From IMG/VR virus record IMGVR_UViG_3300032245_001127: a stretch of DNA of 64,000 nucleotides; one strand, written 5' to 3'. Of this stretch, positions 21,683 through 63,002 are shown in pieces. The DNA comes from a virus. Made by a program: the position numbers and the translations under genes. Below the pieces are notes generated by a model. It made no database searches. It saw only the letters and a list, made by a program, of their open reading frames with translations, and had not been told where the DNA came from. The number at the start of each line of letters is the position of its first letter. The stretch's first letter is position 1.

Positions 21683-24169
21683 TTAGAAGAAATCCTCCAA
21701 GCTACTTGTTTTAATTGTCTTCCAACCGAGTGGAGAGACTGTAATTTGTAATGCATCCAAGAAAACTTTTTGAAATTGAGTATCATAATCAACATAATTA
21801 TGGATGTTAAATTCTTTTGGAAGAACATCAATAAATGAGATTACATTTTCACTTTCGATTGGATTAGGCACTTTTAAATAAAGGAATTTAATTTTTTCTC
21901 CCTCTTTAATTGTTGAGTATTGTTTTTCAAGTTTTTTAGTTTTTAAATTATGATTGTATAATAAACTACCACGAACATGCATAGGAGTAGCTAGTTTATA
22001 AATTGTTGTGCTATCAGCATATTTGTTCATACCTTGACAAGATCTAGGGAAAGCAATTTGTTCTGGTTTAAACGTATTAAAGATCTCACGAAATTTATCA
22101 ATATAATCATACAATGCTTGTTGATCTTTATAAAGAATAATTGGGATAGCATCTCGTAATGCTTTCCTTATTTTTAATGGTGTACTTGATTTAATCATTT
22201 CAAGACCCATTATTTTTAATTTTGGCTTTTCATAATCAACACCCTCGCTATTATATACTGAAAGAATATATCTTTTCTTAGAAGTCCATAATCCACGATC
22301 GGCAATACTTTCTCTCTTCATTACCATCTCATTATGGGTATTATGACGAGAAGCAAGTTCTTCATAACATTTATTAATATATGGTATAAACGTATCTTCG
22401 CAAATCTTATCTAAAAATTTTATTACTTTTTTTGTTTCTGGTAATTCTTGAAATACATTATTCACTATTCCGTCAAAAGAAACATAAATTGAATCAGTAT
22501 CTACAGCTATAATATAATCTTTATTTTTTGTTTTAAGTATATTATTCATATACTCATTTATCTTATCATGAATCCATCTTATAGCTAATTGCCCACCGAG
22601 TGTAATTGCTTCAGCCATTCTTACATCAAAATATCTAAAGTATTCGTTACCCATCGCACCATATGCAGAGTTTAAAGCAATTTTCATTGCCATTTGCATA
22701 TTGTTGGCTCTCGAAATTATTTTTTTATACGCAGGATCTTTAGTTTTTTGATATTGTGATTCAGCACGTAACATTTCTTGTTTAGCTTCAGACCTTTCGC
22801 GATATACATCTCTCATTACTTGTGGGAATACCCCTGCGATTGATTTAGAATAACAAGTACCATTTGCAGCAACTATTACATCATCTTTCGGATTTGCTGG
22901 AACTTTTAAATAATGTTCTACTCCTGATGTATATTTTGTATCTAATAGTGTTTCTGGCGAAATATTATATTGCATAATTAAATGCGGATACAGTGAGTTT
23001 AAATCAAAACTTACAACCCAGTTATGCATTCCTATAATTGGATCTTTAACATATGCTCCTTCAAAATTTTCAGATTTAACATTTTCTTTTTTAGGTGGAA
23101 TAATAATATTTCTTTCACGTAAATGATTATGAATCAACATATCCCAAGATCTTACTTGAGAAAATACATCTTCATAGTTAATCTTAGCACCATATGCTGC
23201 TGTAATTTGAAGTTCGATTAACTTCATTTTATCTTCAAGCATACTTACCAATTCTGTATCTCGAATGTTATACTCTACAAATTTATTCCAATCTTTTTTA
23301 TAAAATTCTGAGAATGTAGAAAATTCACTATGATCTACTTTTTTTACATCTAATTCTACTGACGCAATATTATCAAGACGATATGATTCCTGAGCACTAT
23401 AAGTATATTTGCGATATAGATCATAATAATCTAATTGTGATATTCCTGTTATATCATAGCAAGTCGATTTTTTTCCTCGAATGGTAATAGTGCGTTCACC
23501 AACTAATCCCCAAGGACTAAGTTTCTTTGCTGTTTTTTCATCAATTAATTTTGTAATTCTTCTATACAAATATGTTATATCAAATAAAGATACATTCCAA
23601 CCTGTAATTACATCTGGTGTGTTGTTTCCCCACCATGATAAAAAATCTAAAATTAATTCATTTTCTTTATTGAATAATCTATATTCTGAAACACCTGTTC
23701 CTGAGTAACGATGGCGACCCCATGTAATAATTTTTTTGGTATGAATATTTTGAACTGTAATTAGAAGTATTTCTTCAGGTGTTGTTTCAAGATCAGGAAA
23801 TCCTTGTTCTGATTCTGTTTCAATATCTAAAGAATATATTTTTATCTTATCGTAATCCCATTGAATATCTGTAGGATAAGTGTCCCACATGTATTGATAA
23901 AGAAAATTGGTTTGACCATAAACGTCAAAATTAGAAACTGTTTTATATTCTTCTACGAATGTTTTTGCGTCTTTAATTGATTTAAAAGGAATGCGATAGC
24001 AAGGTTTACCATCAAGAGTTTTAAAAGGTGTTTCGCCTGTACCATTTAATGTCCAAACACTTGGTGCATATGGTATTCTTTCTAGATGTGAACGACCACC
24101 ATTTGATATGGATCTTACGAGTAAATTATTACCAAAAGGAGCAACATTTGTATAAAATTTATAATCCAT
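21683..24169 (-). CDS. gp43: Family B DNA polymerase
   Basis: DIET exonuclease motif, SFDLNSLYP, KIALNSAYG, DTDS. Confidence 0.98.
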   Translation of the reverse strand: MDYKFYTNVAPFGNNLLVRSISNGGRSHLERIPYAPSVWTLNGTGETPFKTLDGKPCYRIPFKSIKDAKTFVEEYKTVSNFDVYGQTNFLYQYMWDTYPTDIQWDYDKIKIYSLDIETESEQGFPDLETTPEEILLITVQNIHTKKIITWGRHRYSGTGVSEYRLFNKENELILDFLSWWGNNTPDVITGWNVSLFDITYLYRRITKLIDEKTAKKLSPWGLVGERTITIRGKKSTCYDITGISQLDYYDLYRKYTYSAQESYRLDNIASVELDVKKVDHSEFSTFSEFYKKDWNKFVEYNIRDTELVSMLEDKMKLIELQITAAYGAKINYEDVFSQVRSWDMLIHNHLRERNIIIPPKKENVKSENFEGAYVKDPIIGMHNWVVSFDLNSLYPHLIMQYNISPETLLDTKYTSGVEHYLKVPANPKDDVIVAANGTCYSKSIAGVFPQVMRDVYRERSEAKQEMLRAESQYQKTKDPAYKKIISRANNMQMAMKIALNSAYGAMGNEYFRYFDVRMAEAITLGGQLAIRWIHDKINEYMNNILKTKNKDYIIAVDTDSIYVSFDGIVNNVFQELPETKKVIKFLDKICEDTFIPYINKCYEELASRHNTHNEMVMKRESIADRGLWTSKKRYILSVYNSEGVDYEKPKLKIMGLEMIKSSTPLKIRKALRDAIPIILYKDQQALYDYIDKFREIFNTFKPEQIAFPRSCQGMNKYADSTTIYKLATPMHVRGSLLYNHNLKTKKLEKQYSTIKEGEKIKFLYLKVPNPIESENVISFIDVLPKEFNIHNYVDYDTQFQKVFLDALQITVSPLGWKTIKTSSLEDFF

Positions 24170-24681: not shown

Positions 24682-24738
24682 TATATGTTATTTGTTTTTT
24701 CTATATAATATTATATACTAAAATATCTTGGAACGCAA

Positions 24739-25398: not shown

Positions 25399-25430
25399 TT
25401 ATTCTTCCTTCTTGATATTAATGATATTAA

Positions 25431-26267: not shown

Positions 26268-26320
26268 TACCTAATATAATCTTTTTTACAAGATATTATA
26301 ATATAGAAAATCTTGGAAGA

Positions 26321-26758
26321 CTATTTCTTTTTTCCTATATTATACTTTGCAACCAACTCCCATTCTCCTTTTTCTTTATGAGAAAGCACCTTAATTTGAC
26401 TTAACGATGCTTTTGGTTCTGCCTTTGTAATATCTTTAATCGATAGTAATTCCCAATCTGACAGTAACGTTGCAATCGTATTTCTTCTTTCAATATCGTT
26501 TGCAGTTATATTCGATTCTTTACCATCTAACGAAAATAATTCTTTAAAATGTACAATAAAATATCTTCCTTGTTTATGTAATATGTGACAAGATTGATAT
26601 AATTTTTTATCTGTACGACTTGCTATACCGATTCGTGTTAATGTTTCACGAACTTTCAGAAAATTATCTGGTTCTGGAAGTGTAACTTCCAACATTTTAT
26701 CAGGAGTCCAGTCGTAAAAAACTTGACTCGGTTTAGTTTCATCAACCATTTGCTCCAC
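26321..26758 (-). CDS. regA: Translational repressor RegA
   Basis: FLKVRETLTRIGIAS...LYQSCHILHKQGRYFIVHFKELF. Confidence 0.97.
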   Translation of the reverse strand: MEQMVDETKPSQVFYDWTPDKMLEVTLPEPDNFLKVRETLTRIGIASRTDKKLYQSCHILHKQGRYFIVHFKELFSLDGKESNITANDIERRNTIATLLSDWELLSIKDITKAEPKASLSQIKVLSHKEKGEWELVAKYNIGKKK

Positions 26759-27128
26759 CTTTATTCAATTTAGTTTCAATTATTTTAAGTTGATCGGCTG
26801 TATGTAGTCCTTCTACAAGTTTTGCTTTCTCAACACTATATCCATAATATTCCATTATTAATTTACATTCCTTTGAAAGTGGAATTTTCTTAAACCATTT
26901 GGAATATCTTTTCTTCTTAGTGATACTATTTAGGTAAAACAAATATTGCCATTCCTTTGGAATATCATTATTTTTGTTGATTTCATTAGAAAAAAATATA
27001 GTATCTTCAAAGTATGATAATCCACGATTTACTATAAATGGATTATATGTTTTTACTGCCAATGGATCATTATCCATTAGATTCTTTTTAGTATAATTAA
27101 TTGAGTCTATAAAAATAAAAGGATTCAT
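26742..27128 (-). CDS. gp62: Clamp loader small subunit
   Basis: YNPFIVNRGLSY, KKKRYSKW, YYGYS. Confidence 0.9.
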   Translation of the reverse strand: MNPFIFIDSINYTKKNLMDNDPLAVKTYNPFIVNRGLSYFEDTIFFSNEINKNNDIPKEWQYLFYLNSITKKKRYSKWFKKIPLSKECKLIMEYYGYSVEKAKLVEGLHTADQLKIIETKLNKGGANG

Positions 27129-27133
27129 AATTG

Positions 27134-27209
27134 TGGTGCCCTAAAAGAGACTTGAACTCCTAACCTACTGATTACAAATCAGTTGCTCTACCAATTGAGC
27201 TATTAGGGC
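27134..27209 (-). tRNA. tRNA-Thr(UGU), 76 nt with encoded CCA
   Basis: GCCCTAA/TTAGGGC acceptor stem, D arm GCTC/GAGC, anticodon arm CTGAT-TTGTAAT-CAG, TTCAA T loop, ACCA end. Confidence 0.95.
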
Positions 27210-27214
27210 AAAAG

Positions 27215-28162
27215 TTATTTCCATTTGCATCGTTTCATTATCTCGGTAAGTGCTGCCATTTTATTAATTTCGTGGTCAGCCACAAATGCTGCTCGATGTT
27301 GATATTCAGCGAGAATAAGAACTAAGTCTGGCAGTGTGTCAAGTATAATGTAAGATTGTGATTTGTTAAATATGTCGCTAAACAATTGAGTAGATTCTAT
27401 ATCTGAATTTGTAGCAACCCACTCTCTCATTTTTTTCCATTCTCTATTCTTTAATAAATGAAATAAATCTTTGTAAGAATCATCTGAAAGATTTACGAGA
27501 ATACCTGTATCTATTTTACCAGCGACTGAATATCTTTGTAATTCATTTAATACTCTACGAAAATCAGGAAAATGTTTTTCGATTAATACCGCAACTACTT
27601 TAGAATCGAAAGATATCTTTTCACTATCAAGAATATTCTTTACTCTTTTAAAGAAAGAAGTACATATAACTGGTTTTTGCTCGTTGGGTATTTTAAATTC
27701 AATGACTGAACATCTTGAATGAAGTGGTTCTATAATTCTATTTTTAAAATTACAAGTAAAAATAAATCTACAATTAGATGAAAACTCTTCAATAAAGGCA
27801 CGAAGTGCAGGTTGTGTGCTATTAGGATTTAAATAATCTGCTTCATCCAATATAACTATTTTTTTAGAATCAGTAAGAGATACACTTGATGCGAATGATT
27901 TAATTTTAGTTCTAAGAACATCAATACCTGACTCTTCAGAACCATTGATTAATAGGTATTCAGCACCAATCTCGTTGCATAGTGCTTTTGCCACTGTCGT
28001 TTTACCAACACCAGCACCACCACAGAATAGAAAGTTTGGTAGCTGTCCGTCTTTAATAAATTGTTTAAATGTTAATTTAAGTGATTCTGGAAGAATACAA
28101 TCGTCAATCTTATTCGGACGATATTTCTCTACCCATAAAAATTGATTTTCTGCTGTTATCAT
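27215..28162 (-). CDS. gp44: Clamp loader large subunit
   Basis: WVEKYRP, GGAGVGKTT, DEAD, LHSRC. Confidence 0.96.
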   Translation of the reverse strand: MITAENQFLWVEKYRPNKIDDCILPESLKLTFKQFIKDGQLPNFLFCGGAGVGKTTVAKALCNEIGAEYLLINGSEESGIDVLRTKIKSFASSVSLTDSKKIVILDEADYLNPNSTQPALRAFIEEFSSNCRFIFTCNFKNRIIEPLHSRCSVIEFKIPNEQKPVICTSFFKRVKNILDSEKISFDSKVVAVLIEKHFPDFRRVLNELQRYSVAGKIDTGILVNLSDDSYKDLFHLLKNREWKKMREWVATNSDIESTQLFSDIFNKSQSYIILDTLPDLVLILAEYQHRAAFVADHEINKMAALTEIMKRCKWK

Positions 28163-28211: not shown

Positions 28212-28880
28212 TTACTTACCGATTACTGAATCAGATTCAATAGCAACATAATAATTCAAGTCGCCTTTTGTAGCTGAGAATTTAGATATTTTTTTATTAT
28301 CTACTGATACTTTATAATCAGTAATTACCATTTTTAAATTCTCTACTTTTATATTTACTTTGAACTCTGAAGAAACAGTTCCTAGATCTAGAATAAAGTT
28401 ATTCGCAGTTGCATTTTTCTTATCTCCGACAACAACTGACAATTTACCTTTCGCACCAATAATAGCGATATCTGGTGATCTTAATATTCCAGCAGTTTTA
28501 ATAATCATCTCTAATTGAGATGCACTAATATTAAAAGATATATCTTCATTTACTGGCAGACTATCTTTAGATGGAACTGCAAGCATTTCTGGAGCAGCAG
28601 CAAAAAATTTAATTTTTTGATTGCCTTTCTCAATAGTGCAGTACTTTTCTGAAAAATTTACTTCAGGATCTTCAAATAGTGTATATGCTGATAAAAAATC
28701 ATTTAATTCATATATACCGAATGAACCATCAATCGGAAGTGTTTCAGCTATCTTGGCAGATGCCATCACATTTTTCTGCGCAGAAATAGTTGTTATTCTA
28801 TTTCCTTGTTTCAAAAGTAAGTTTGAATTGATTCCAGCAAAGTTTTTTAATACTGCTAGAGTTTCTTTACTTATTTTCAT
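28212..28880 (-). CDS. gp45: Sliding clamp
   Basis: LKNFAGIN, FGIYELNDFL, YYVAIE; start reassigned after SD GGAG. Confidence 0.93.
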   Translation of the reverse strand: MKISKETLAVLKNFAGINSNLLLKQGNRITTISAQKNVMASAKIAETLPIDGSFGIYELNDFLSAYTLFEDPEVNFSEKYCTIEKGNQKIKFFAAAPEMLAVPSKDSLPVNEDISFNISASQLEMIIKTAGILRSPDIAIIGAKGKLSVVVGDKKNATANNFILDLGTVSSEFKVNIKVENLKMVITDYKVSVDNKKISKFSATKGDLNYYVAIESDSVIGK

Positions 28881-29154
28881 TTTTTCTCCCATTATTTAAG
28901 TTAGCATCATGCACCGATAATGCAATCAATGCATAGTGTAAGACCTTTAAAAGATCTTTACGATTATGTCCATCTTTTATTCCATACCTTTGACAGTATT
29001 TTAAAACATTGCCTAGAGCGAACCCCATGCCATGCCCACAATCAATGATGAACTCTGTTGATTGAAACTTGTTTTTAGAATAGTGACCTTTATATGTTGA
29101 GTCAACATATTCTTTTAATTCTTTAATTAACTTATCTTCATTAAACTTATACAT
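28867..29154 (-). CDS. DUF3310-like protein
   Basis: TYKGHYS..GFALGNVLKY..RYG.KDG..DLLKVLHY. Confidence 0.75.
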   Translation of the reverse strand: MYKFNEDKLIKELKEYVDSTYKGHYSKNKFQSTEFIIDCGHGMGFALGNVLKYCQRYGIKDGHNRKDLLKVLHYALIALSVHDANLNNGRKNENK

Positions 29155-29252
29155 AAAAAATATTATACTATAATTAATCTTGTAAAGAAAGCAAGGCGAC
29201 TAAACTAACTAAAAGGAAAGAGTAAAAAATCGCCTTGCAATATTAATGTAAA

Positions 29253-40499: not shown

Positions 40500-40926
40500 T
40501 GATAAACTGTTTCCATTGAATTGCGTTACGGATTTGCCAGTCTCTCGCTTTGATTTGATTTAATATTGATTCTAAATATTCAACTATACTTGTAAGATAT
40601 TCAATTTTTAATTTTGCTTTAATTAGATCAGAATCGCCATTTAAAAATTCATCCATTTCATTTCTTAATGGTTTTATACCTTGCCACTGTTCCCAGCCAG
40701 CCAATTCTAATTCTCCTTTGGACATCTCACCTCGATAATAACGAAATTTTTTTGTACGCAGCATCGCATATTCAGAGTTAGCTGAAGTGACACGATGTTT
40801 ATGTGATATTAAATGATGAAGATATTTTGCATGCATTGCAGGTGTTCGAACGCTCTCACGATCTAAATGATCATCGTCAATCTTGCAATCGCTATTCCAT
40901 TCATTTTGTAATTCTTCCAAAGTCAT
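40489..40926 (-). CDS. uvsY: Recombination mediator
   Basis: P.MHAKY, YYRG, R.WQIRNAIQW..F. Confidence 0.9.
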   Translation of the reverse strand: MTLEELQNEWNSDCKIDDDHLDRESVRTPAMHAKYLHHLISHKHRVTSANSEYAMLRTKKFRYYRGEMSKGELELAGWEQWQGIKPLRNEMDEFLNGDSDLIKAKLKIEYLTSIVEYLESILNQIKARDWQIRNAIQWKQFISGA

Positions 40927-44631: not shown

Positions 44632-44639
44632 TATTTATA
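44632..44639 (-). promoter_or_regulatory. T4-type late promoter TATAAATA
   Basis: Exact consensus upstream of gp22; also at 62991-62998; CTAAATA/ATAAATA variants at 8470, 11318, 41891, 48682 and 50469. Confidence 0.75.
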
Positions 44640-55444: not shown

Positions 55445-58400
55445 TTACATACCCCCAAGAGCAATTGCTAATGCTGCTGCTGTTGAAGAAGAAACTCCAC
55501 CACCACCACCAACACCATTTGTAGCTGTAGCCACGCTCACGTTACTTCCTGAAGGATAACCACCTGCTGAATTATTATTAAATACAAAATAACCATCAGC
55601 ATGCATTGAAACTTTTGTTGATCCCATAAATAATGAAGCACCATCTAGATATAAATGTCTAAATTTATTTGCTGCTGATCCTAAATCAATTGTTGCGTTT
55701 GCGTTTGGTATTAAATTTCCACTAATTGTTGCAGCACCAATTGTTTTATTCGTTAGTGTATCTGTAGTCGCTCTACCAACTAATGTGTCTGTTGAAGTTG
55801 GTAATGTAAGTGTTCCTGTATTAGATATAGTGCTAATAATAGGCGAAGTTAAAGTTTTATTTGTAAGCGTATCAGTTGTTGCTCTTCCAACTAAAGTGTC
55901 AGTTGAAGTAGGTAATGTCAATGTTCCAGTGTTAGAGATAGAAGATATAACTGGAGATGTTAATGTTTTATTTGTTAAAGTATCTGTAGTCGTTCTACCA
56001 ACTAAAGTATCTGTTGATGTAGGTAATGTCAATGTTCCAGTGTTAGAGATAGAAGATATAACTGGAGATGTTAATGTTTTATTTGTTAATGTGTCTGTAG
56101 TTGCACGACCAACTAATGTATCAGTTGCTGATGGTAATGTTAATGTTCCGCTCGCAGTCGCAGCCACATTTAATGTTGTTTTACCTGAACTTGAACCACT
56201 TAATGCTAATGTTTTTCCTGCAGCAGTTTCAGTGTTTCCTAATACAACGACACCAGTTCCTTTTGGTGTAATATTAAGTCCAACATTTGCGTCTGATCCT
56301 GTTGCAGAAAGAGTTGGGTTATTTCCTGTTGCAGCATTGTTAATCGCAAGTTCATTTACAGCACCAAGCGTTTCATTAATTCTTAGAACAAGAGTACTAT
56401 TGTTTGTTATTATTCCAGCAAGCCCATAACCATTTGGCACAATCTTTGGTAATTCTAAGTTTTTATTCGTTAATGTTTCAGAACCATCTAAAGTCGCAAC
56501 AGTACCAGTTGTTGGTAAAGTTATTGATGTATTTGCAGTAGTTGTTAAACCAAGAGTATGAGCACCAGTATGTGTAAAATTACCACCAAGTGTAAGTGTT
56601 TTGCCAGAATTATTTACTCCAGTTCCACCATATTGACCAGCGATTGCTGAACCTTGCCATGTTCCACTCGAAATTGTTCCTAATGTTGTAATTGTGTTTT
56701 GACCAGCATATGTTGAAGCAATATCAATACTATTTGCATTTACAGTAATACGATCTGCAGTTCCAACTGCGTCAATTGTATTACCATCTTTTGTTAATCC
56801 ATTTCCAGCTATTATTTGACCAGCACCAGAAAATTGAGTAAATGAAATATTTGTAGTTCCGACTGTAACCATTGGGATTGTTTGTACAAATCCTTGATTA
56901 CCAAATTGTGTTCCATTTGATACAAATAAGAAATCACCACTCGCAACTTCTGAAACAGAATCAAAATCTGTTGCTCTTGTTAATATTGTTTTTGTTGCGT
57001 CAATAGTATAGATACCATTGTGAGCAGCATTTGCTTGATTTTTAATTAAAAGTCTATCACCACTTACTACTGTGTATGATGTATCTAAAGTTGTTAAAGC
57101 ATTTTGTAATGTTAATGTTGCACCATTTCCAGCTGTACCATTATCGTAAGTGACTGTGCCACCTGTTAAAACTGCAAGTGTGTCTGTTGTTGCAGCTTTT
57201 ACTGATGCATGAACGTGAAGACCTGCTTCAAGAGCATCAATATAAGATTTTGGAACAAGAGAATTAGCACCAAATCCTGCTCTTCCAGTATAACCAGCAG
57301 GAACATTTACAACTCCTGTTCCATCTGGCGATAATGATATATTAGAATTACTTGTTGTGCTAATAGTTGTGATAACTGGCGAAGTTAAAGTTTTATTTGT
57401 TAATGTTTCAGCACCACTAATTGTAACAAAATTATCATCTGATAATGCTGTATTAAATTCAGCTGTAGTTCCAGTAATTATATTATTAGCTAAATTGATT
57501 GATTTATTTGTTAATGTATCTGTAGTTGCTTTTCCAACTAAAGTATCTGTTCCTGTAGGAATAGTTATTGTTCCACTATTAGAAACAGAAGATATTACAG
57601 GAGTTGTTAATGTTTTGTTTGTTAATGTTTCTGTTCCAGTTAATGAAACGAAATTATCATCTGATAATGCAGTATTGAATTGTGCTAATGTTCCTGTAAT
57701 TGTGTTTGATGTTAAATCAATTGATTTGTTTGTTAATGTGTCTGTAGTTGCACGACCAACTAATGTATCTGTTCCAGTAGGAATAGTTATTGTTCCACTA
57801 TTAGAAATACTAGAAATAACAGGAGTAGTTAATGTTTTGTTTGTTAAAGTATCTGTTGTAGCTCTACCAACTAAAGTATCAGTTGATGTTGGTAATGTTA
57901 ATGTTCCAGTATTACTGATTGAAGATATTATAGGAGTCGTTAATGTCTTATTCGTTAATGTTTCTGTTCCTGCAAGTGTAGCGAAATCACCATCACTCAA
58001 TGCTGCATTAAACTCTGCTTTAGTACCTGTAATTGTATTAGTTGTAAGACTTATAGATTTATTTGTTAAAGTTTCAGAACCTGCTAATGTAGCAAAATCT
58101 GCATCAGTCATAGCTGCATTAAACTCTGCTTTAGTGCCTGTAATTGTATTAGTTGTAAGACTTATAGATTTATTTGTTAATGTATCTGATGTTGCTCGAC
58201 CAACTAAAGTATCAGTTGCGTCTGGAAGAGAAAGTGTTCTGTCTGCTGTTGGATCAACTGTTGTTAAAGTTGTTTCAAAATTATCAGCAGTTGCACCCTC
58301 AAATACAAAAGCATTTTGAATATTAACTGTTGTTGAGTCTACTGTAGTTGTTGTACCAGAAACAGTAAGATTACCTGTGACTGTTAAATTATTATTAACT

Positions 58401-59224
58401 GTTGTAGTACCTGTTCCAGCACCAAGATTTAAAGATGTAGCAGCACCACCAACGTTCAATGTTGTGGCAGTTGTATTTAATAAATTGAAAGTTGTTTGAG
58501 AAGTTGTTAGATCACCACCATTAACTGCTAAATCGCCAGCAATAACTGCGTTTCCTGTAGATGCGTTTGATGTAAATTTTGAAGTTGCAACAGAAAAATT
58601 ACTTTCAGCATTTAAAGTTCCTTTAATATTTGTATTTCCTGTAGATGCTTCGATTGTAACTTTATCCGTACCAATTGCTACGTTTCCAGTAATTGCAGCT
58701 GTACCCTCGATCGCAGTATTTCCATTTCCTGCGTTTACTGTAAATTTATCTGTATTTACTGAAAAGTTTCCAACTACATTTGCAGTTGAACCAAGAGATG
58801 CTGCACCAGTTGTGTTTAACGTGTTAGTTCTTACATCTGACCATTTTTTAGAAACTGTACCTAATGAATAAGTGTTATCTGTATTCGGAACTATATTTGA
58901 ATTTACATCTGCACCAAAAACAACATTATCAGTGTCAGCATCACCCATAGTGATTGTTCCACCATTAAATGTTGTTGTTCCTGTAACAGTTAAATTTCCG
59001 CCAACATTTACGTTTCCTGTTGTAGTTAAAGATGCAATCGAAGGAGTTGATGTAGCATCAACGTTTGTCATATCAGCACGTAATAATTCTTTACCACCTA
59101 CTGTTGATCCGTCATGAACAACAGCAACTTTTTTTGAAGTATTAATTGTTAATTCGCCATCTGCTCCTGTGAAAGATGCATGTTGGGCTGTCGTTCCTCT
59201 TCTTAATTGTAATTGTGTTGGCAT
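55445..59224 (-). CDS. Long fibre protein with Mtd/hyaluronidase-type N-terminus and 37-aa repeats
   Basis: [19 protein letters not shown]; TLTNK repeats. Confidence 0.85.
55760..56092 (-). repeat. Three tandem 111-bp coding repeats
   Basis: [37 protein letters not shown] x3, near-identical. Confidence 0.9.
57407..58183 (-). repeat. Seven tandem 111-bp coding repeats of two types
   Basis: Order B-B-A-A-B-A-B, each 37 aa and starting TLTNK. Confidence 0.9.
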
Positions 59225-62978: not shown

Positions 62979-63002
62979 TTCTCTCTTCCCTATTTATAAA
63001 AA

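Follow-up and report, generated by a model that had tools for sequence, protein, structure and literature searches.

A tRNA-Thr(UGU) gene set between the clamp-loader genes gp44 and gp62 of an uncultured T4-like phage

Discussion of phage tRNAs is normally confined to decoding and to their use as spares in the face of host defences, and those of T4 sit in a separate cluster. The DNA analysed here, IMG/VR virus record IMGVR_UViG_3300032245_001127 (64,000 nucleotides, referred to throughout as the window), carries a tRNA-Thr with the anticodon UGU between gp44 and gp62, the genes of the two clamp-loader subunits. The T4 operon 45-44-62-regA-43 (NC_000866) has the same gene order and the same Pfam families, gp43 following in the window after some small open reading frames (ORFs). 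With gp45, gp44, gp62 and regA on one strand in this order, the locus is a T4-type clamp-loader operon. In T4 the stop codon of gene 44 and the start codon of gene 62 lie 1 nt apart (TGA-T-ATG), which bears out the adjacency behind the gp44–gp62 coupling mentioned in a preliminary description of the window. The corresponding distance in the window is 86 nt, filled by the tRNA and two 5-nt spacers, and the stop/start abutment of T4 is therefore absent.

In animal mitochondria, according to the punctuation model of Ojala, Montoya and Attardi (reviewed in PMC6056719 and PMC11112384), coding sequence lies within a few nucleotides of the tRNAs on one strand. The window tRNA is likewise flanked at 5 nt per side. 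The likeness would extend to the processed RNA, as excision would leave an mRNA almost without leader and the phage appears to translate leaderless mRNAs. The mitochondrial layout is genome-wide, whereas the phage has one tRNA in one operon; its processing, unlike that in mitochondria, would use the RNase P, RNase E and exonucleases of the bacterial host. Punctuation as a conserved organising principle was not found, the 64 kb holding one tRNA and the slot being occupied by a tRNA in only one other contig, a near-identical twin. No description of tRNA punctuation in phages was found in the literature.

In E. coli operons that mix tRNAs with protein genes, the tRNAs lie at the transcript end, the spacers are longer and the ORF keeps its leader and Shine–Dalgarno (SD) sequence. 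The operons thrU-tyrU-glyT-thrT-tufB and secG-leuU are of this kind, with tRNAs that are co-transcribed with ORFs and released by RNase P and RNase E (PMC2190699). The window differs from them in that its tRNA separates the genes of two subunits that belong to one complex, at 5 nt from each. Such mixed tRNA–mRNA operons are the nearest prokaryotic analogue. Among phages, C48C1 (OQ984149, Kyanoviridae) carries a tRNA-Thr(UGU) in the same replication module, with D and anticodon arms identical to those of the window tRNA and with different acceptor and T arms. It is located between gp45 and gp44 with spacers of 48–55 nt and small ORFs around it, and gp44 and gp62 of C48C1 overlap by 4 nt. Marine and freshwater T4-like phages have a slot at the same insertion site as the window; the cargo of the window is an RNA gene, which breaks the stop/start chain into gp62.

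ARAGORN predicted a single tRNA in the window. Against Rfam RF00005 it scored 75.4 bits (gathering score 29, E = 4.7e-16) over model positions 1–71 of 71, and all stems were intact in the alignment. When the 76 nt were folded alone, the minimum free energy (MFE) structure was the cloverleaf, at −24.2 kcal/mol. CCA is encoded at the 3′ end. The anticodon UGU occupies positions 34–36 (ARAGORN: tgt at 34) in the 7-nt loop UUUGUAA, with U33 present. Recognition by E. coli threonyl-tRNA synthetase (ThrRS) follows the identity elements G1:C72, C2:G71, G35 and U36, all of which are provided by the acceptor stem GCCCUAA/UUAGGGC and the UGU anticodon. The element is thus read as a canonical, functional phage-borne tRNA-Thr(UGU), with predicted maturation and aminoacylation; in itself the tRNA is ordinary. 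ARAGORN, RF00005, the coordinates and the twin contig all agree with the preliminary description, which had placed the gene between gp44 and gp62 with 5-nt spacers on both sides, and its positions (end of the gp44 stop at 27215, tRNA at 27209–27134, gp62 ATG at 27128) match a direct reading of the sequence. MFE folding of the tRNA together with its flanks was uninformative (z = 0.08), and no target-site duplication or repeat was found around the gene. A donor was sought by matching the acceptor stem and anticodon arm pattern to GTDB species genomes (0 matches) and by blastn against isolate phages, whose best matches reached ~86% along 70 nt and 80.5% along all 76 nt.

The twin is an independent IMG/VR contig, L084, with 109 mismatches to the window in 6.8 kb (98.4% identity). 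Its layout is that of the window and its tRNA is 100% identical, and its 3′ spacer reads TAATT in place of CAATT. Because this contig is independent, the arrangement is not an assembly artefact. The sole indel in the 6.8 kb lies at L084:2744–2905 (window ~25400–25420), where L084 has ~146 nt more, with a 53-aa ORF.

The phage can be described as an uncultured aquatic T4-like phage of pelagimyophage-like affinity. By gp44, the isolates closest to it are Methylophilales phage Melnitz (59% amino-acid identity), followed by the Pelagibacter phages Mosig and HTVC008M and cyanomyophages (~54%); pelagimyophages carry from none to a few tRNAs each (PMC7029224). In IMG/VR the best gp44 identity among the matches listed was 73%. 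Searches with gp62 in IMG/VR, JGI metagenomes and GTDB genomes returned nothing but the twin contig or relatives of at most 53% identity. In a set of 5.8 billion proteins gp62 fell into one cluster at ≥90% (four sequences, P0123 among them at 90% identity), the next match being at 61%. One 98%-identical gp62, P0122 (NBP55163.1), is deposited at NCBI as 'DNA polymerase [Candidatus Elulimicrobium humile]'; it is probably from a phage contig binned into a bacterial metagenome-assembled genome, with a misnamed product.

For comparison of the junction, IMG/VR loci from the gp44 search (80 listed, with 60–73% gp44 identity) were supplemented with Melnitz-3 and phage C48C1, and junctions were counted over 78 listed relatives. 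A tRNA between gp44 and gp62 was present in none of the 78, nor in Melnitz-3 or C48C1. A scan of IMG/VR (2.9 million viral contigs) for a tRNA T-loop at most 46 nt before a gp62-type N-terminus retrieved only L084 and one false positive. The preliminary description had listed a non-conserved tRNA position among the grounds that would refute its interpretation, and above the level of the strain the position is indeed not conserved. The distance between gp44 and gp62 in the relatives ranges from −4 to 1051 nt. Stop and start overlap (ATGA or TAATG) in 7 of the 78 and are separated by 7–15 nt in 4, so that direct adjacency is seen in just 11; the rest carry at least 160 nt. Most of these inserts encode a homologous protein of ~105 aa that has a membrane helix at its N-terminus and carries a GW-x-RE motif (L007:3943–4275, L008:3938–4243, L009:1397–1711 and ~60 other relatives), sometimes with extra ORFs. 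The stop codon of this gene overlaps the gp62 start by 4–17 nt, and tblastn found no counterpart of the protein in the window. Other cargo includes 2OG-Fe(II) oxygenases and further ORFs. The gp44|gp62 junction is thus a hypervariable slot that has repeatedly taken foreign DNA in this phage group.

The ends of the two genes are homologous across the slot, gp44 closing with CKWK* in the window and CKFK* in relatives and gp62 opening with M-x-P-F. In L004–L006, the closest insert-free relatives, TAATG links the two. The window resembles this state, with a tRNA and short flanks inserted exactly between stop and start. The insertion appears recent and confined to one narrow lineage, and it breaks a widely kept coupling geometry. 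No SD-like motif precedes gp62 in 50 of the 78 relatives. The comparison suggests that gp62 is normally expressed by coupling to whichever ORF precedes it, the tRNA lineage being one of only two exceptions.

The gp62 frame of the window is shut upstream by a TAG within the tRNA acceptor stem, and the N-terminal M-x-P-F-x-F is conserved among homologues, so the ATG at 27128 is the true and only possible start; a 111-aa version from one gene caller (P0121) merely begins at Met18. The preliminary description had held that the spacing leaves no room for an SD. There is indeed none in the 5-nt spacer, but AGGG occurs at −14 to −11 of the gp62 ATG, in the 3′ strand of the acceptor stem, and the absence of an SD is ordinary in this genome. 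About 58% of the window ORFs, among them gp43, gp44 and gp45, are without an SD-like 4-mer at −18 to −4, and for this reason a missing SD before gp62 is not special. The downstream gene regA has its own SD, AAGGTGGAG, within the C-terminal codons of gp62. At the C-terminus, gp62 homologues share an invariant K-G-G. The sequence that codes for it, AAAGGTGGA (window 26742–26775, minus strand), doubles as the regA SD, and the conservation of K-G-G in the protein may partly mirror this RNA signal. The region of the gp62 start, CAAUUAUGAAU (window 27129–27140, minus strand), resembles the RegA operator of T4 gene 44, AAAUUAUGAUU (PMC3014915). This likeness was rejected as evidence, AATTATG occurring at 3 of 79 starts in a rough count with about one expected by chance for a sequence of this AT content.

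In at least eight genes, that of the DNA polymerase included, a TAnAAT box ends 6–8 nt ahead of the ATG, against an expectation of 0.8. The phage promoter class to which these boxes belong, TTnCTTnnCAAG-N11-TA(T/C)AAT, was found at the ATGs at 40926, 38429, 34011, 29154, 25038, 24169, 21610 and 12155 (minus strand), with further hits at 24710, 15831, 26295 and 19005. These genes, of which there are at least eight, thus appear to be transcribed as leaderless mRNAs, and leaderless translation is plausible in this phage because of the position of their −10 boxes. Short spacers are also common: the median intergenic gap is 8 nt, and the gap is at most 10 nt at 39 of 77 junctions, so the 5-nt spacers are typical of the genome.

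A position weight matrix (PWM) built from the phage's own promoters found no phage-type promoter between 29162 and 26295, and no minus-strand terminator was predicted there. The promoter at 29162 is the probable start of an orf95-gp45-gp44-tRNA-gp62-regA transcript, and the tRNA, with no phage-type promoter or terminator between gp45 and regA, most likely lies inside this polycistronic mRNA. If it is co-transcribed, its maturation must cut the mRNA and part gp44 from gp62-regA. The features of the locus are listed in Table 1. The window has 31% GC and almost all of its genes are on the minus strand; an Hsp20 gene, identified by Pfam, is also among the neighbours of the operon.

Table 1. Features of the clamp-loader operon and of the tRNA locus (window coordinates)
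Feature	Position	Strand	Evidence
Phage-type promoter TTnCTTnnCAAG-N11-TATAAT; −10 box ends 7 nt before the orf95 ATG at 29154	29162..29197	−	PWM score 38.1
orf95, 95 aa, first gene of the predicted operon; overlaps gp45 start	28867..29154	−	ORF list; promoter directly upstream
gp45, sliding clamp	28212..28892	−	Pfam PF09116 gp45-slide_C, E 1.2e-9
gp44, clamp-loader ATPase; stop TAA 27217–27215	27215..28162	−	Pfam AAA (PF00004) 4.7e-17, Gp44_lid (PF21328) 2.8e-14
5′ spacer CUUUU, 5 nt (pre-tRNA leader, U at −1)	27210..27214	−	Direct sequence reading; same in L084
tRNA-Thr(UGU), CCA encoded	27134..27209	−	ARAGORN, RF00005, cloverleaf MFE; 100% identical in L084
3′ spacer CAAUU, 5 nt (UAAUU in L084)	27129..27133	−	Direct sequence reading
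gp62, clamp-loader small subunit, 128 aa; spacer without SD	26742..27128	−	Pfam PF16790, E 6.8e-11; conserved N-terminus from Met1
regA, translational repressor; overlaps gp62 end	26321..26758	−	Pfam PF01818, E 1.5e-44
Next phage-type promoter, at regA end; downstream bound of the promoter-free stretch	26295..26330	−	PWM score 19.5
gp43, DNA polymerase	21683..24169	−	Pfam

Codon usage was calculated for the window. Threonine accounts for 8.5% of codons, level with lysine as the commonest amino acid, and ACA occurs at 43.4 per 1000, making up 51% of Thr codons and ranking sixth among all codons. A 1259-aa fibre ORF (55445–59224) is 21.7% Thr with 173 ACA codons, and several other late ORFs are 14–17% Thr. 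The preliminary description had remarked that the anticodon suits ACA-rich and Thr-rich fibre genes; the composition agrees with this, but partly as a matter of plain AT bias.

The explanation that we favour, and regard as reasonably probable, is that a decoding tRNA was acquired in the permissive gp44|gp62 slot by a narrow aquatic T4-like lineage, with punctuation as a by-product. One narrow lineage would have acquired the tRNA-Thr at this junction, and the main benefit would probably be decoding supply, ACA being the commonest Thr codon and Thr being extremely enriched in fibre genes. The 5-nt spacers would fit the general compactness of the genome and an insertion exactly in a former TAATG-type overlap. 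The tRNA, having no promoter of its own, would be transcribed within the orf95-gp45-gp44-tRNA-gp62-regA message. Bacterial RNase P, to which a U at −1 and an encoded CCA are well suited, would cut the 5′ end of the tRNA 5 nt past the gp44 stop. Endonucleases or exonucleases would free the 3′ end somewhere in the 5-nt stretch that leads up to the gp62 AUG; RNase E of E. coli cleaves 1–3 nt past an encoded CCA (PMC2190699). Each matured tRNA would thereby sever gp44 from gp62-regA. Having lost stop/start coupling, gp62 would start independently of an SD on unprocessed RNA or on processed RNA with a leader of 0–5 nt, and the phage seems equipped for such initiation because many of its genes are leaderless or without an SD. 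Given a functional tRNA that is co-transcribed, punctuation would then follow almost as a matter of logic, and its being an adaptation is unsupported so far.

Several observations weigh against this explanation. Co-transcription and processing are both deduced from the DNA sequence itself. A sigma70-like TTAACA-16-TATACT (27369–27342) is present within gp44, at 133 nt on the upstream side of the tRNA, and could yield an independent transcript; generic sigma70-like matches are at chance level in the window (26 found, 29.5 expected from shuffles), and scanning for generic sigma70 sites and terminators did no better than on shuffled sequence. The arrangement is represented by two near-identical sequences only, and the absence of differences in the 76-nt tRNA is to be read against ~1.2 single-nucleotide polymorphisms (SNPs) expected at 1.6% divergence. 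A-ending codons are preferred in every four-fold family, which makes AT bias as much a source of the ACA frequency as any special demand. Finally, 76 of the 78 listed relatives have the gp62 ATG in overlap with the stop of an upstream ORF or at most 15 nt from it. Such retention suggests selection on coupling geometry, from which it would follow that the equal 5-nt spacers might be functional and not incidental.

The preliminary description had read the arrangement as punctuation that sets stoichiometry. On an adaptive version of this reading, tRNA excision would release a gp62-regA mRNA with a 0–5 nt leader and low-efficiency leaderless initiation would replace the T4 coupling, lowering gp62 relative to gp44. 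The mitochondrion-like flanks of 5 nt per side, the stretch from gp45 to regA with no predicted promoter or terminator, and leaderless initiation that appears routine (at least eight genes with a suitably placed −10 box against 0.8 expected) are in keeping with this, as are the RNase E cleavage close behind CCA and the bases suited to RNase P already mentioned. We nevertheless consider it unlikely: the position of the tRNA is conserved in 0 of the 78 relatives, which couple gp62 to any upstream ORF, so that no special device is needed, and in E. coli extra 5′ nucleotides reduce leaderless initiation. Coupling could instead persist on unprocessed mRNA if a ribosome ending at the gp44 UAA, 5 nt ahead of G1, melted the first base pairs of the acceptor stem and freed the AGGG strand and the gp62 AUG, both of which the tRNA fold places beside the stop codon; in spite of the 86 nt inserted, initiation at gp62 would still depend on translation of gp44. 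The layout is symmetrical, with 5 nt from the stop to the acceptor stem and 5 nt from ACCA to the start, the helicase of the ribosome acts on RNA ~11 nt downstream from the P site, the spacer length is the same in L084 although the first base of the 3′ spacer differs, and the start within 15 nt of an upstream stop in all but two of the 78 relatives argues for selection on coupling. The idea is, however, drawn from geometry, RNase P and the ribosome would be in competition on one RNA, AGGG at 10-nt spacing is a weak SD, and we know of no prokaryotic reinitiation across a folded tRNA; both the melting mechanism and the dependence on gp44 translation that it would preserve are therefore given only a slim chance. 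Distinctly unlikely as well is the tRNA as a cis-regulatory device in addition to a decoder, its fold setting the gp44 stop and the gp62 start at the same helix end and a race between ribosome and RNase P setting the gp44:gp62 ratio. Part of the transcripts would have their acceptor stem opened by ribosomes that terminate there and pass on to gp62, a shunt-like coupling in a prokaryotic system; on others the RNase P cut would free a near-leaderless gp62-regA mRNA, and tRNA output would be tied to translation of the replication genes.

A different role, as a spare or decoy against host anticodon nucleases with the position incidental, would replace codon supply as the main function. A solitary tRNA in an early or middle replication operon would be expressed early, and should the host share the AT-richness of pelagimyophage hosts (GC 30–35%; PMC7029224), ACA would already be well read. 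The anticodon loop UUUGUAA looks ordinary, however, and the demand for ACA codons is high. As we know of no tRNA-Thr-specific nuclease either, this role seems very improbable. A pseudogene or assembly artefact is effectively refuted by the full-length model match of 75.4 bits, in which no stem is broken, and by the same tRNA on an independent contig with 109 SNPs elsewhere, and nothing specific speaks for it. The gp62 start might be reached by SD-independent initiation, by leaderless-type initiation on the processed fragment or by structure-mediated coupling. SD-independent initiation on any available RNA is favoured because it is the commonest mode in the genome, and the leaderless and structure-coupled routes stay alive because relatives strongly conserve the coupling geometry. 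It can be argued that the tRNA did not evolve as a stoichiometry device, since the tRNA itself is not conserved.

A tRNA between two subunits of an essential complex physically links its own maturation to expression of the downstream subunit. An unusual variant is seen here, the tight embedding occurring in a phage with many leaderless genes. Should the link prove functional, a bacterial virus would offer an equivalent of punctuation in mitochondria or of ribosomes shunting across a structure, together with a simple natural test bed for the competition between RNA processing and translation initiation. If it is not functional, the locus would be a clean example of the gp44|gp62 hot spot accepting RNA genes besides ORFs, and of gp62 tolerating the loss of a stop/start coupling kept in 76 of 78 relatives. 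A role of the tRNA in setting the gp44:gp62 subunit ratio is unproven, fails the conservation check and is unsupported so far. The interpretation given in the preliminary description is, taken as a whole, partly supported.

Two minor observations concern other features. ARAGORN reported a tmRNA-like gene (tag ANDSNYNYALAA) at L060:6074–6439, ~2 kb further downstream than the clamp-loader genes on the contig of a related phage from IMG/VR. In the window, the T4 late-promoter octamer TATAAATA occurs in two copies (44632–44639 and 62991–62998, minus strand) where shuffled sequences gave 14.1; both copies lie just upstream of genes, and the octamer appears to be strongly avoided elsewhere.

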